NCBI RefSeq assembly: GCF_037042905.1
Contig: NC_087245.1
Location: forward strand, 3,412,001 to 3,476,000
Source: Lytechinus pictus
Taxonomy: Eukaryota
Length of the DNA stretch: 64,000 bases
Reading direction: 5' to 3'
Of this stretch, positions 1 to 62,168 are shown in pieces. Every line of letters begins with the position of its first letter. Within the stretch, counting starts at the first letter, position 1. Made by a program: the position numbers and the translations under genes. A model generated the notes under the pieces. The model did not search any database. It worked only from the letters and a program-made list of their open reading frames with translations, and was not told where the DNA came from.

Positions 1-120
1 ATATATATATATATATATATATTGTAAAGAAATTGATGAAGAGAACAATGGTAGGCGTAGCTTAAATCAAGGTTCCCCAGAGCTATCTACCCTTTGGAAA
101 ACTTGGTGATGCCGAAAAAA

Positions 121-1419
121 TGTCTCTGCCGGGAATCGAACCCGGGCCCCCAGCTTTGAACGCCGCACAGTGGGCCGGGGCGAAACAAAAGTGCGCCAAA
201 AGTCATTTTGGGCAATTTCAGAATTTTAATTTTTGTCATGCTCAGCTGAAAGACAACACTTTGAAGAATACTTCAGCAAAATATTTCATTCGGGAATTTG
301 CATAAAGGTTGTTAATTTCCTACCTCAAATCTTAAAATGTGACATTTTGCGAAATGCCGCGTGTATGACAACTTAGTTGAAAAACAAGCAATTTCACGGG
401 AGGTTTTTCATGTAGGAATCTGAAATGGCACCCACATAATCCTGTTATATTTTTTTTTTTCGTGTGAAATGGTCCAAATTAGATAAAAGACACATTTCAG
501 GAGGTTTATAGAACAATTATTCCTCGAAATAGGCTGATAATCCATGTTTTTAGCATTTACATGAGAAACGTTTGGATTTCCATGGATTTCCGTTTAAATC
601 CTATCATCATCATTTTGACAGATGTCTAAGCTTTAAGTCGATACCAAATTTAGCTGCCCGTTTTTGCCCGTTTTCATGTTAGAGCCGATTTTACTTGGCA
701 AAATACCCCCAAAACCTGTTCAAAAACGGTCATTTTTATACCGCACATTCATCGCAGCGCACCGTGTGGGGTGTTCATTGCCGTTCATTTTTGCACGGCG
801 AGGACGATTCCCCCTTCCATTCCATGAAAAAGACATGAATTCCGGGCATAATGCAAACAAAATAAAGGTTGATAACGCATATAAGGGCTACCCGCCCCTC
901 TTCCAGAGATAAAATTTAATTTACTAATTTCAGCCAAAAGCCCTCCTCACAGTAAAACATTCGTGGTCCTATATACTCTGCGTTTTACCCAAGTCTACAC
1001 CGCTTGATAAAGCACGGTTAAATTTTTTTTCAGATTTTTAATTATTTTTTTAATCTAATGATCACTTTGATGCCATATAATTATTTTCAGGATCTCATAC
1101 ACACTTGTTAGGCATGTGAGAAGCATAAACCAACATTCACTCTGGTCAATCTTAAAGTAACACATAACACAAAGTTTATATACTACACATTGTTTAGCGT
1201 AATTTGTCTTTTCACAGATAGGTTTTAAGTAGCCAATCAAAATTTGGTATCAAAGTGACGTCATATCGGCTTTAAATTATGTTCAGTAGATTCTACGCCC
1301 AAAATTACCCTTAATCAACATGTTAAAGTGAAAATATAACACGGAATATAATTTTGGCGCACTTTCAACTCATTCTGGCCCACTGTGCGCCGGTGCCTTA
1401 ACCACTAGACCACAGAGAC
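121..1419 (-). pseudogene. tRNA-like sequence with UCA anticodon, split by the Transib-like insertion
   Basis: Reconstructed minus strand: GTCTCTG TG GTCT AGTGGTTA AGGC A CCGGC GTTCAAA GCTGG GGGC CCGGG TTCGATT CCCGG CAGAGAC A. All four stems pair, and Pol III A and B boxes are present. Confidence 0.7.
166..1387. mobile_element. Non-autonomous Transib/RAG-like DNA transposon (1222 bp)
   Basis: Inverted termini CACAGTGGGCC at 166-176 and GGCCCACTGTG at 1377-1387. A second shared block AAAGTGCGCCAAAA lies at the same distance from each end. The 5-bp TSD CGCCG is at 161-165 and 1388-1392. The uninterrupted sister copy near 1791-1802 reads aacgccggtgcc and shows the empty site. No transposase ORF. 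Confidence 0.9.
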
Positions 1420-1752: not shown

Positions 1753-1824
1753 TGTATATGCCGGGAATCGAACTCGGGCCCCCAGCTTTGAACGCCGGTG
1801 CCTTAACCACTAGACCACAGAGAC
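1753..1824 (-). pseudogene. Second, uninterrupted tRNA-like copy (72 nt, UCA anticodon) with a damaged acceptor stem
   Basis: Same cloverleaf as copy 1, but the 3' acceptor strand reads CATATAC instead of CAGAGAC and the T stem has one change (CCGAG). Confidence 0.65.
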
Positions 1825-2608: not shown

Positions 2609-3412
2609 TGCGTCCCACAAAAAACGAAACCGAGATTTATCGATGATTTATCATAACTTAATCACAAATACAATAGACAAATGACCTACTATTGTAAAGC
2701 TTAGAATCTCCTCTTTCATCTAAAATTACTTAGATTATTTCTCATTTACGCATGAGTGAGCAAAAACAATTTGAAGAGGGGATACCAAAAAGTCATTTGG
2801 CGGGCTGTATCTGGGTTTCAAAAAGAAAACCACATTTTTAAAAAGTTCAATATCTGCTCTGTAATTTGATACCTCAATTACAGAAAATGGTCAGAAAATA
2901 ACAAGGTTCTGGTTATTTGAAATAAGGCTTGAATTTCAATAATTTCATAAAATTAAGAGGTTCTACAGGCTAGCGTTCAAACTCACTTTTGTTGAAGATC
3001 AGCCATGCATTAAGTCTTTTGTTAACCATGCGATATCTTCTGTGTGAAACCGGTGAAAACACGTTTATTTAATGAAATTATGGAAATACAAGCATTGTTT
3101 CGAGGGAACATAACTTTTTACTTATTGGCTATTTTTTGTGATTAAGGTATCAAATAAAAGAGCAGATATTGAACGTTTTAGGCATGTGATTTTCTCTTTG
3201 AAATTCAGATACCCCCGCCAAATGAGTTTTTGGTATCCTTTCTTCAATTTTTTTTTGCTCACTCATGCGTGAATGGGGAATAATCTAAATAATATCAGAT
3301 GAAAGAGGAGATTATAAGCTTTACATTGGTAGGTCATTTGTCTATTGTATTTGTGATTAAGTTATGATAAATCATCGCTTAATCTCGGTTTCGTTTTTTC
3401 TGGGACGCACTG
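2609..3412. mobile_element. Tc1/mariner-type MITE with long inverted arms (CAGTGCGTCCCA family), left tip clipped
   Basis: tgcgtcccacaaaaaacgaaaccgagatt at the left end and aatctcggtttcgttttttctgggacgcactg followed by TA at the right. The arms are complementary over about 300 bp, and a near-identical copy starts at 63406. Confidence 0.85.
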
Positions 3413-10868: not shown

Positions 10869-11424
<556 letters not shown>

Positions 11425-13411
11425 ATAGCATTTAGTGGTGGCGGTGGTTGAAGAAGTAAGATTGATAAGAAAAGTACTGGTGGTATGGTTCTAAAGATAT
11501 CCACGTGACTTAACTTAAAAAATGCGGGTGCTCGTTTCGTATTTTATCATTTCAAATACATCATACTATATTCACATTGGGAGAAATCGAAGAGACATTC
11601 AAAACTGAGTAAGGATATGCAGTCGTGTAATGTTACGCCGATGAGATATATAACATCGGTGCCTCGCCCTTTGTTATTGAATAATATACTGATATATTGA
11701 ACAGTGAATCCATTTGGATGATGAGGGCAAAATAGTTCGTAAGTATTAATACATCCAATGGGGTTTTCAAGTGATAAACTTGCCATGGGAAGTCATGTTA
11801 GGGGAGCAGCATTTAGGAAAGGCTAATTCATGTTATCACTTGATCTGATGTTAAGAGTAACCACTATTTCATGAGGGTTATCCAGTAGTGAATTGAATTT
11901 TTGTTAATCAATTTATATTGATGCCCGTGGTTTGAATCATTACTCTGACGCAGTGTACAGATGCTAGGTCAGTCGTATTCTTAATTTATCGTACATTCTC
12001 CACTTAATTATTAACAATAATGAGCAAGACACCCTGTTATTTGGTCAGATGAATTTAGCGCTTAATTGTATCACTTATGTTAGAAAAAGAAGTGATTCCT
12101 TTTATGAATCTCTAGCAAACTACATGTTTACATCTGGAGTGATGCATTTAGACACATTAATGCTTTTTAGAGGGAAGCAAGGTATCATCCGACCAGCTGA
12201 TTGATGAAAACATACAAGTTGTAAGCGCCCATGAATAATCAATGCGTTCATTATCTTACCTTACCTTACCCCAACGCACACTTTATATAGTACATGACCT
12301 TAGCCGTGTTCTCCAACCTCCATTGCCCTAGATTTCGAACCCAAACGTCTCGTTTTATTCGGTTTGCCCTCATTTATCCCTGGTGATAGCTCGAGAAACA
12401 TGTATTATTCACATGTTGCCATCAAAGCGTATTGTACCCTTACAGAATGGAGCTTACAATGGAATGATTTTTTTCTTTCTTTTGGGACATGGATGTAACC
12501 TCATTCTCACATCAATTACTTTCATTGTATTTTCATTTTTATAAGTCATTCTTTGTTTCCTGATGTTCAGGCAGAATTTTCGATCGTAAGTAGTGGAATT
12601 CTCAAAAATATCCTCAAACGTAGCTCCTGTATTGTTGAGAACATGTCCTTTACCATTTGATTAATTATATGCATGTACCTGTATCATTCTTATAAAGGGT
12701 GCAGATGAACATATCGTGTTAGGTCGAATTTCTATCCTCCATCTCTACCCCTAACATGATTTACTTCGCGTAATTGAAAGTGGCAAATGTTTCTCTAGGT
12801 AATTGGAAAGTCATAACATAGCCTTAAGTTTAATTAGTACATAAAACTGAAGACTTGAAATACATTTGCTCTTTTTTTTTAACACGATAAATATTCATAG
12901 GATGACCAAATATGGTTGAATTGTTTTGTCCTCTTAGATTGTAGTATGATTACAGCAAGATCATATCCAACGACAGTTTAATGCACGGTGGCACCCCGTC
13001 GTTAATATTTTTTTATTTATTTATTAACTGGTATATAATGCCCAAAAGATAACCTTGATAATATAGTTATATATTCCAAATTTTATACATCTCTATGAAA
13101 TCGTCTGAATCTTGTAACCTAACACAAACCTCAAAATTCGTTGATGTGCTAAATCGAGCCTTTAACAATTTATCAGTTCCCTTTAATGGCCTATAATTTT
13201 AATCATTCATTATCATCTCCATCGGAGTAACTGTATGGACATACTGCTCTATTACAATAATCATTCTGGAAATATATTCACATCTACCCAAGATTTAGGT
13301 AATGCTTCAGGGATACTATAGTGATAAAAGCAATACCTACCCACGCCAATATTAACATCCAAAATGCCTATTTCGATACTTATCCTAACTACTGTGAAAG
13401 TTCTTTTACAG

Positions 13412-35714: not shown

Positions 35715-38700
35715 ATGACCTCTTCACATTATCCTCTACTTACAACCTACCTCTTCCCATTACACATCTACTCACCATCAACCTCTTCCCATTATACATC
35801 TACTCACTACCAAACTCTTCCCATTAAACATCAACTCACCAACCTATTCCCATTACCCCTCTACTCACTACCAAACACTTCCCATTACACATCAACTCAC
35901 TACCGACCTGTTCCCGTTACCCTACTACTCACCACCGTCCTATTCCCATTAACGCTTTACACACCGTCGTCCTCTTTCCATATACCTACTATTCACTACC
36001 GTCCTATTTCCATTACCACTCTACTCACCAACAACCTCTTCGCATTACCCCCTCTACTCACCACCGACCTCTTCCCATTACCCCTCTACTCACCACCGAC
36101 CTCTTCGCATTACCCCTCTACTCACCACCGACCTCTTCCCATTACCCCTAATCTCAACACTGACATCCTCCCATTACTCCTCTACTCACCACCGACATCT
36201 TCCCATTACCCCTCTACTCACCACCGACCTCTTCCCATTACCCCTCTACTCACCACCAACCTCTTCCCATTACCCCTCTACTCACCACCAACCTCTTCCC
36301 ATTACCCCTCTACTCACCACCGTCCCCTTCCCATTATCCCTCTACTCACCACCGTTCCCTTCCCGTTACACATTCTACTCACTACCAAACATTTTCCAAT
36401 ATCCTCACTACCAAACTCTCCCCATTACACATTTACTCACTACCAAACTCTTCCCATTACACATGTACTCACTACCGACCTGTTCCCGTTACCTTACTAC
36501 TCACCACCGTCCTATTCCCATTAACGCTTTACACACCACCGACCTCTTTCCATATACCTCCTATTCACTACCGTCCTATTTCCATTACCTCTCTACTCAC
36601 CACCGACCTCTTCCCATTACACATCTACTCACCAACAACCTCTTCGCATTACCCCTCTACTCACCACCGACCTCTTCCCATTACACATATACTCACCAAC
36701 CTATTCCCATTACCCCTCTACTCACTACCAAACACTTCCCATTACACATCAACTCACCAACCTATTCCCATTACCCCTCTACTCACTACCAAACACTTCC
36801 CATTACACATCGACTCACTACCGACCTGTTCCCGTTGACCTACTACTCACCACCGTCCTATTCCCATTAACGCTTTACACACCGTCGTCCTCTTTCCATA
36901 TACCTACTATTCACTACCGTCCTATTTCCATTACCACTCTACTCACCACCGACCTCTTCCCATTACCGCTCTACTCACCAACAACCTCTTCGCATTACCC
37001 CCTCTACTCACCACCGACCTCTTCCCATTACCCCTCTACTCACCACCGACCTCTTCGCATTACCCCTCTACTCACCACCGACCTCTTCCCATTACCCCTA
37101 ATCTCAACACTGACATCCTCCCATTACTCCTCTACTCACCACCGACATCTTCCCATTACCCCTCTACTCACCACCGACCTCTTCCCATTACCCCTCTACT
37201 CACCACCAACCTCTTCCCATTACCCCTCTACTCACCACCGTCCCCTTCCCATTACCCATCTACTCACCACCGTTCCCTTCCCGTTACACATTCTACTCAC
37301 TTCCAAACTTTTTCCAATATCCTCACTACCAAACTCTCCCCATTACACATTTACTCACTACCAAACTCTTCCCATTACACATGTACTCACTACCGACCTG
37401 TTCCCGTTACCTTACTACTCACCACCGTCCTATTCCCATTAACGCTTTACACAACACCGACCTCTTTCCATATACCTCCTATTCACTACCGTCCTATTTC
37501 CATTACCTCTCTACTCACCACCGACCTCTTCCCATAACACATCTACTCACCAACAACCTCTTCGCATTACCCCTCTACTCACCACCGACCTCTTCCCATT
37601 ACACATCTAATCACTACCAAACTTTTTCCAATATCCTCACTACCAAACTCTCCCAATTACACATCTACTCACGACCAAACTCTTCCCATTACACATGTAC
37701 TCACTACCGACCTGTTCCCGTTACCTTACTACTCACCACCGTCCTATTCCCATTACCGCTTTATACACAACCAACCTCTTCCCATTGCACATCTACTCAC
37801 CACCGACCTCTTCCCATTGCACATCTACTCACCACGAACCTCTTCCCATTACACCTCTACTCACCACCAACCTCTCCCCATTGCACATCTACTCACCACC
37901 GACCTCTTCCCATTGCACATCTACTCACCACCAACCTCTCCCCATTGCACATCTACTCACCACCGACATCTTCCCATTACACCTCTACTCACCACCAACC
38001 TCTCCCCATTGCACCTCTACTCACCACCGACCTTTTCCCATTGCACAGCTACTCACCACCGACCTCTTCCCATTGCACATCTACTCACCACCGACCTCTT
38101 CCCATTGCATATCTACTCACCACCAACCTCTTCTCATTATCCCTCTACTCAGCAACGACCTTTTTCCAATTACCCCTCTACTCACCACCAACCTCTTCTC
38201 ATTACCCCTCTACTCACCACCAACCTCTTCCCATTACCCCTCTACTCACCACCAACCTCTTCTCATTACCCCTCTACTCACCACCAACCTCTTCCCATTA
38301 CCCCTCTACTCACCACCAACCTCTTCCCATTACCCCTCTATTCACCACCAACCTCTTCCCATTACACCTCTACTCACCACCAACCTTCTCCCCATTGCAC
38401 ATCTACTCACCACCGACCTTTTCCCATTGCACATCTACTCACCACCGACCTCTTCCCATTGCACATCTACTCACCACCAACCTCTTCTCATTATCCCTCT
38501 ACTCAGCAGCGACCTTTTTCCAATTACCCCTCTACTCACCACCAACCTCTTCTCATTATCCCTCTACTCAGCAGCGACCTTTTTCCAATTACCCCTCTAC
38601 TCACCACCAACCTCTTCCCATTACCCCTCTACTCACCACCGACCTTTTCCCATTACCCCTCTTCTCACCACCAATCTCTTCCCATTACCCCTCTACTCAC

Positions 38701-38890
38701 ACCAACCTCTTCCCATTACCCCTCTACTCAGCACAAACCTCTTCGCATTACCCCTCTACTCACCACCGACATCTTCCCATTACCACTCTACTCACCACCA
38801 ACCTCTTCCCATTACCGCTCTACTCACCACCAACCTCTTCCCATTACCCCTCTACTCACCACCAACATCTTCCCATTACCTTTCTACTGT
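35715..38890. repeat. 32-bp minisatellite, about 3.2 kb, with higher-order duplication
   Basis: Unit CCCCTCTACTCACCACC(A/G)ACCTCTTCCCATTA. Diagnostic variants recur at offsets of 918-950 bp, for example atctcaacactgac at 36151 and 37101. Confidence 0.95.
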
Positions 38891-61394: not shown

Positions 61395-62168
61395 ATCCCA
61401 CGCGCTCAACTCGCACAATGATCTTGACCTGACACACTCAACAACAATAATTTTCCAAACCCCCACAAACATATCCTAGCACCTAATCTCACACACTCAA
61501 CTAACACAATGATCCCAACCCAACGCACTCACGCAGCACATTGATCCCAATTCCACACTCTCACCTACCACAATTAACCTAAACCCAACACACCTACAGC
61601 TTAATGTTTTCGAAGCCCACACATTCAACTACCACTATGATCCCGACCCCACTCACACAACTAGAACAACTATCCTGACCCCACCCACTCACTTAGCACA
61701 ACGATCCCGACCCCACCAACTCACCTCGCACAGTGATTCCAACCCCACGCATTCACCTAGCACAACGATTCCGACCCCACCCACTCACCTAGCTCGACGA
61801 TCCGGACCCCACACACTCACCTCGCACAGTGATTCCAATCCCACACATTCACCTAGCATAGCAATCCCTATCCCACACACGCCCACCGACCATAATTATC
61901 CCGAGCCCCATACACTCTCCAAGAACAACGATCCGGACCCCACCCACTCACCTATCACAACGATCCCGACCCCACCCACTCAACTACTACAATGATCTTG
62001 ACCCCAAAAAATCACCTACCACAATGATCCTGACCCCAAACACTCACCCATTACAACGATCTCGACCCCACACACACACACCTAGCACAACGATTCCAAC
62101 CCCGTAACTTACCTAGAATAATGATCCTAACAGCACACACTCTCCCTTAACACGATGGTCCCAACCCC
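61395..62168. repeat. Degenerate 32-bp minisatellite
   Basis: Unit approximately CCCACTCACCTAGCACAACGATCCCGACCCCA; tcacctag recurs at 61753 and 61785. Confidence 0.9.

Follow-up and report, generated by a model that had tools for sequence, protein, structure and literature searches.

A non-autonomous Transib element inserted in a tRNA-like repeat of the sea urchin Lytechinus pictus

Results

The element and its ends

Near the start of a 64-kb stretch of Lytechinus pictus DNA (the whole stretch analysed, hereafter the window), a short transposable element that we call N1 lies between two copies of a 5-bp target-site duplication (TSD). The features of the element, in window coordinates, are these:

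161..165, plus strand: left TSD, CGCCG (family consensus CGNCG)
166..1387, plus strand: non-autonomous Transib element N1, 1,222 bp, with no coding capacity
166..201, plus strand: left terminal inverted repeat, 36 bp, composed of CACAGTGGGCC, 11 variable bases and AAAGTGCGCCAAAA
188..201, plus strand: shared 14-bp box, positions 23-36 of the left end, containing the "12-spaced" AAA and the "23-spaced" AAAA
1352..1387, minus strand: right terminal inverted repeat, 36 bp, with the same box at positions 23-36 (window 1352-1365)
1388..1392, plus strand: right TSD, CGCCG

The initial annotation of this DNA had drawn attention to the ends, and its reading of them is borne out. Both begin with CACAGTG, the heptamer of V(D)J recombination signal sequences (RSS), at 166-172 on the left and likewise on the right when that end is read inward. 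On the left, the heptamer is followed by a 12-bp spacer and then by ACAAAAGTG (185-193), which matches the nonamer ACAAAAACC at 6 of 9 positions, as had been claimed, and the block that stands at a 23-bp spacing, CCAAAAGTC, also matches at 6 of 9. The right end, read inward, carries a 12-spaced TTGAAAGTG (3/9 to the nonamer) and a 23-spaced CCAAAATTA (5/9), and an A-tract follows the 23-bp spacer at both ends, overlapping the shared AAAGTGCGCCAAAA. The two ends are identical at 28 of 36 positions, and those of the window copy are unlike each other at 8 of positions 12-22. The terminal 11-mer CACAGTGGGCC occurs exactly twice in the window, namely at the two ends of the element; shuffled versions of the window hold it 0.19 times on average, and two occurrences were reached in 1 of 100 shuffles. 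The TSD is perfect, as reported. The element had also been called intact, which holds for its ends but not for its coding content: no stop-free stretch exceeds 91 codons, and the window element shows similarity neither to Transib transposase (best tblastn E 0.62) nor to RAG1-like (RAG1L) proteins (best E 8.4).

The host repeat and the empty site

The insertion interrupts a minus-strand tRNA-like unit of 72 nt, the break falling in the 5′ strand of the anticodon stem, and a second, uninterrupted unit lies nearby:

1388..1419, minus strand: interrupted tRNA-like unit, 5′ part, through the 5′ strand of the anticodon stem
121..165, minus strand: interrupted tRNA-like unit, 3′ part
1753..1824, minus strand: uninterrupted neighbouring tRNA-like unit, 72 nt, anticodon position TCA, empty site at 1793-1797

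The uninterrupted unit is called a tRNA by both ARAGORN and Rfam. We set aside the label "tRNA-SeC" that ARAGORN gives it, since that label is based on the anticodon alone and the unit is a 72-nt standard cloverleaf. The units sit in a 405-bp tandem repeat with at least 187 matches in the genome, obtained from the 38 candidates scored out of 1,174; most full-length matches show 96-98% identity. Because the tRNA-like unit belongs to this multicopy repeat, the "empty site" is a paralogue. The adjoining repeat copy had been taken to show the pre-insertion sequence; it does present an empty site, but as a paralogous unit and not as the pre-insertion allele, differing from the interrupted unit at 9 of 154 flanking bases. 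Even so, it fixes the breakpoints of N1 and the 5-bp duplication. The empty joint was also found in contigs from four DNA runs, which is to be expected because the host repeat is multicopy; none of the contigs listed bridges the junction between host and element, and such contigs cannot show absence. None of the runs listed was an RNA run. Elsewhere in the window, a MITE-like element of about 800 bp, its 196-nt inverted arms 91% complementary, occupies 2609-3409; two C-rich minisatellite arrays with a 32-bp unit lie at 35717-38888 (about 100 copies) and 61490-62142 (about 16 copies), and a (TAG)n array spans 10883-11425.

A family of hundreds of copies

In the 812-Mb genome from which the window comes, 40 of 45 matches to N1, obtained by scoring 40 of 658 candidates, were nearly full-length, with identities of 90-100%. 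Exact 32-mers of the left end occur 164 times genome-wide and those of the right end 221 times, and a pattern describing both ends found 723 ends against 0 for the reversed control, a count that takes in a sister family, N2. N1 is a family of hundreds of copies.

The GC-rich 5-bp TSD noticed in the window is a property of the whole family. Scanning 59 loci gave 38 two-ended copies (a query containing the TSD supplied the first 20 loci and end patterns the rest), of which 30 have an exact 5-bp TSD, 7 match at four of five bases and 1 at one of five. Duplications of 3, 4, 6 or 7 bp were seen in none of the 38, and five copies match also at 8 bp, inside CGG runs. With no 4-bp duplication in any of these copies, the family is not Chapaev-like, an assignment that had been named as one that would refute the Transib reading. 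The exact TSDs are mostly CGNCG, and among 128 distinct end flanks 106 read CGNCG and 17 are one base off; the whole 64-kb window has only 52 CGNCG sites. CACAGTG ends, CGNCG duplications of 5 bp and the alignment to a decayed autonomous Transib described below together place N1, as had been proposed, among the non-autonomous members of the Transib superfamily.

From the consensus of 26 full-length copies the window copy has diverged by 3.0%, and its nearest copy is equally distant (3.0%); 14 of the 37 differences of the window copy are private substitutions, and the closest pair among the 26 are 1.15% apart. The host unit and its best relatives share 98.6% identity. The initial annotation had suggested recent mobilisation, and these figures agree with it loosely, but the unmutated TSD that was offered in support is weak evidence of recency, because perfect TSDs also flank copies that are 6-7% from the consensus. 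The insertion in the window is young, but there is no sign of current activity.

Several arrangements of N1 copies deserve mention. Elements often stand side by side with 5 or 8 bp between them (CGNCG or CGNCGNCG), and at these loci (L072, L076, L175, L176) the TSD of one insertion seems to act as the target for the next. Fragments of the right half of N1 occur on several contigs with the same outer flank (L082, L083, L085, L087, L091, L092, L094, L174), which suggests that this piece has been carried and multiplied by another repeat; such fragments may account for part of the excess of right ends. A composite on C3 (L075, G000:C3:70521312-70523127) joins two different N1 copies, with halves 93% alike, right ends outward and CGGCG on both sides, its inner left end being broken. 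Pairing exact left and right ends for long copies yielded only N1 or N2 elements swollen by LINE, Tc1 or other inserts, and an 18.5-kb span on C3 was resolved into two separate N1 copies.

A decayed autonomous relative and a sister family

The autonomous partner sought for N1, with N1-like ends and a DDE transposase of about 700 amino acids, was found as a decayed copy only, at C11:197023-208991. This C11 relic has N1-like left and right ends, a TSD matching at 4 of 5 bases, a LINE insert and a frameshifted transposase that spans residues 6-697 of the full-length Transib protein P0008. It occurs in four copies with common flanks, which we counted as one insertion, and for a 106-residue piece of the transposase from a duplicate (L136) the sole PDB match is HzTransib of Helicoverpa zea (E 2e-8). 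Three portions of N1 align to it:

166..913, plus strand: left portion of N1, 69-71% identical to the left end region of the C11 relic (L134, L136)
925..1068, plus strand: middle portion, 66-68% identical to the relic just upstream of the transposase (L150, L136)
1121..1387, plus strand: right portion, 75% identical to the right end region of the relic

In coordinates of the element these are bases 1-748, 760-903 and 956-1222, at 68-75% identity. What N1 lacks, between about 1068 and 1121 of the window, is the 2.4 kb of the relic that holds the transposase. Because the relic aligns along N1 apart from this stretch, N1 is likely, and most simply, an internal-deletion derivative of the C11 Transib lineage. 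With no more than 68-75% identity to N1, the C11 relic itself is a cousin of N1's parent and not that parent.

The sister family N2 is about 2 kb long, has a 5-bp TSD in 6 of 6 copies and retains the C-terminus of a transposase. Over 183 bases it is 93% identical to a 495-codon open frame on C15 that matches HzTransib at E 6e-83, against 4.5e-5 for the RAG1L of ProtoRAG. The C15 frame is open over the C-terminal two-thirds of the protein and lacks the N-terminal third, and in its CxxC motif Tyr stands where HzTransib has Cys; no N1- or N2-type ends were found around it in the 30 kb fetched.

Among the 38 matches of the search with P0008 (64 of 126 candidates scored) there was no full-length open Transib frame, and so the mobilising enzyme is one that we infer. 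Transib relics surfaced at loci with variant ends, and further broken transposases lie at G000:C19:10.107 Mb, C8:38.985-39.007 Mb, C2:43.223 Mb and C2:47.33 Mb, those on C8 and at C2:47.33 Mb carrying N2-type ends. Two degenerate patterns for Transib motifs gave chance matches only, and the local Transib enzymes are one residue off in each of these motifs. The Pfam RAG1 model found RAG1L loci and missed all of the Transib relics.

RAG1L-RAG2L elements in the same genome

The loci found with the Pfam model include open RAG1L frames on C182, C233 and C4. What appears to be a complete RAG1L-RAG2L (RAGL) transposon occupies about 13.6 kb at G000:C182:10626-24199, with a 612-codon open RAG1L and a convergent RAG2L (matches to PDB 6B40). 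Its ends read CACAATG and CACAGTG followed by GCAAAT, CGGAG is duplicated on both sides, and the motif shared by its ends is offset by 11 bp. On C233 there is a second copy, equal to the first in RAG1L score, with different flanks and no matching TSD, and a divergent RAG1L with a 624-codon open frame and a convergent RAG2L-like gene lies at G000:C4:15.67 Mb.

Discussion

Relation to published Transib elements

RSS-like Transib ends, non-autonomous sea-urchin Transibs with nearly the ends of N1, and CGNCG targets have all been in print since 2005. Transib-N1_SP of Strongylocentrotus purpuratus is a non-autonomous Transib of about 0.6-1 kb (Kapitonov & Jurka 2005, PMC1131882), and as described there its ends are also 36 bp long, of the form CACAGTGGGCC-N11-AAAGTGCGCCAAAA, matching the left end of N1 at 32 of 36 positions and the right end at 28 of 36. 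It makes a 5-bp TSD as N1 does, with CGNCG in 10 of 11 left flanks (PMC1131882). According to the same account its two ends are identical, whereas those of N1 differ, and N1 is the longer element at 1.22 kb (PMC1131882); the two were compared at their ends, the internal sequence of Transib-N1_SP being masked in the published figure (PMC1131882, Fig. S4g). The suggestion that the N1 family may not be new is probably right. Literature searches found no publication on N1, which may already be named in Repbase/Dfam, and we regard the window element as a real, well-preserved but ordinary non-autonomous Transib copy that possibly has a Repbase name. What is added here is local: within one assembly, N1 can be connected both with a decayed autonomous Transib and with a sister family.

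Transib1_SP, an autonomous sea-urchin Transib of about 4.1 kb with a CGGCG TSD and a 676-aa transposase (PMC1131882), resembles, as published, the C11 relic minus its LINE insert in size and transposase, as well as relatives of 695-719 amino acids; it is autonomous, whereas the autonomous Transib copies in the genome studied here are broken. The closest solved structure to the local transposase relics is that of HzTransib (PDB 6PQN), which, as reported, depends on the heptamer and makes a 5-bp TSD, in line with the ends and TSD of N1 (Carmona 2016, PMC4840297). HzTransib differs in having terminal inverted repeats (TIRs) of its own with little or no likeness to the nonamer, and in an enzyme without most of the nonamer-binding region (PMC4840297).

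How N1 may have arisen and moved

We are highly confident in an account in which N1 is a non-coding copy of a Transib family with hundreds of members, an autonomous Transib likely having lost an internal segment to give rise to it, and a Transib transposase acting in trans, with no distinction between the two ends, likely having moved it. Of the two kinds of partner that had been envisaged, a Transib or a RAG1-like enzyme, it is the plain Transib that finds support, in the decayed autonomous copy with the same ends, and not the RAG1-like one. Transib transposase is described as needing the heptamer, cutting by nick and hairpin formation, working without RAG2 and leaving 5-bp TSDs (Carmona 2016, PMC4840297). 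In this light, an autonomous Transib would have lost its internal transposase segment to give N1, and an enzyme supplied in trans would pair the two near-identical ends by contacting the terminal CACAGTGGGCC and, probably, positions 23-36, where the box would be a second binding site used alike on both ends. The enzyme would then excise N1 and insert it with a 5-bp stagger into CGNCG, and repair would duplicate that target. The anticodon stem of a tRNA-like unit in a young repeat was probably entered merely because it offered CGNCG. The source enzyme is not intact in the assembly, and may have belonged to N1's own lost parent or to the sister lineage, that of the C15 frame.

Do the ends bear on the 12/23 rule?

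The initial annotation had suggested that the bipartite ends could inform how the asymmetry of 12- and 23-bp spacers arose, and this suggestion is not supported: the box is offset by 0, both A-tracts are present on both ends and a published relative has identical ends, so that the ends of N1 are likely uninformative on the origin of the 12/23 rule of antibody-gene recombination. Since the box holds two A-runs ten bases apart, any reader can find both a 12 and a 23 spacing on one end.

An alternative is that the ends form a cryptic 12/23 pair, such that the enzyme reads the 12-spaced block on the left and the 23-spaced block on the right and needs one of each. The nonamer score of the 12-slot is indeed higher on the left than on the right, in N1 (5.8 vs 3.0 of 9) and in N2 (5.0 vs 4.1 of 9), and in N2 the right end has the higher-scoring 23-slot (7.0 vs 5.0); in N1, however, the 23-slot scores better on the left, which is the wrong side. 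ACAAAAGTG, whose conservation had been named as a check, is present in 38 of 48 N1-type left ends, which is a weak test in a young family with ends partly chosen by exact pattern; the 12-slot is not fixed in relatives, where the C11 relic has ACTAAAGTG and one right end has TCAAAAGTG. The critical AA is found in both slots, on both ends and in nearly all copies, and at nonamer positions 5-6 of the 23-slot it stands in 48/48 N1-type left and 55/55 right ends (partly pattern-chosen).

From published work, HzTransib is reported to be sensitive to the presence and position of the nonamer on RSS substrates (Carmona 2016, PMC4840297). In the majority of Transib families both ends are RSS23-like, whereas a few have 12/23-like ones (Kapitonov & Jurka 2005, PMC1131882), the latter including, in what is given there, insect families; Transib5, Transib2_AG and TransibN1-3_AG are those listed with ends of the 12/23 type (PMC1131882). 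Against this stands Transib-N1_SP, which by the same source spread with two identical ends (PMC1131882). No displacement of the distal motif by about one helical turn between the ends was found: the best offset of the box is 0 in N1 (14/14), in N2 (14/14) and in the C11 relic (13/14), while the same test applied to the RAG1L-RAG2L transposon on C182 gives a best offset of 11 (10/14, a modest match). A weak hint in the same direction comes from the composite with two right ends outward, whose matching CGGCG flanks would arise about 1 time in 3 by chance given CGNCG and could have come about by other routes. All in all, we consider a cryptic 12/23 pair improbable.

We attach a similarly low probability to a variant in which N1 has dual-signal ends on the way to 12/23 asymmetry, the 12-slot having stayed close to the nonamer on the left while decaying on the right, by selective loss and not by insertion of a helical turn. 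Positions 12-22 of the ends do differ between left and right in a pattern common to N1 and N2; if the variant were true, we would be looking at ends that are identical in the purple-urchin relative and have diverged at these positions in the same direction in two sister families.

Two unlikely alternatives: a RAGL origin and tRNA targeting

That N1 is a miniature of the RAG1L-RAG2L transposon of this genome, or is cross-mobilised by it, strikes us as very improbable. Open RAG1L frames exist on three contigs, the pair on C182 lies between TIRs flanked by a 5-bp CGGAG duplication and includes a RAG2L match, and N1 and RAGL elements have the heptamer in common; but 20 stretches (200 kb) around RAG1L matches contain no similarity to N1 (best E 0.71), the ends read GCAAAT after the heptamer in RAGL and GGCC in N1, and N1 maps over its whole length onto a Transib relic. 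As described in the literature, RAGL transposons and V(D)J RSS share with N1 the CACAGTG heptamer and a GC-rich 5-bp TSD, and RAGL transposons, unlike N1, encode RAG1L and RAG2L (Martin 2023, PMC10629977; Martin 2020, PMC7204232). The distal motif of asymmetric RAGL ends is there offset by about 10 bp, against 0 in N1 (PMC10629977, PMC7204232). In Martin 2023 (PMC10629977) the ends of RAGL-A elements are put forward as the source of the asymmetric RSS, and direct descent from Transib is argued against.

A Transib lineage with symmetric ends and a RAG1L-RAG2L transposon with ends seemingly offset by 11 bp thus occur in one genome, a pair that would make a convenient natural contrast for the enzyme features that impose end asymmetry. 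The RAGL element, and not N1, is the better lead on that question.

That N1 specifically targets tRNA-like genes, in the manner of Dada-type transposons, which target small-RNA genes, is largely refuted and has next to no chance of being right: the window copy does split a tRNA-like unit within the anticodon stem, but ARAGORN found no tRNA at 19 of the 20 best N1 loci, the sole tRNA-bearing locus being the window's own, the flanks of N1 are varied and have only CGNCG in common, and of the 35 tRNA-like heads that were read (a few loci overlap), the one in the window is the only interrupted unit.

The host repeat has features of its own. The young 405-bp unit (window 12-165 and 1388-1830, and loci L100-L111) often adjoins (TA)n; its 72-nt tRNA-like gene is well paired and precedes a T run. 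TCA stands at the anticodon in 31 of the 35 heads read (overlapping loci included), and arrays of the repeat occur also head to head.
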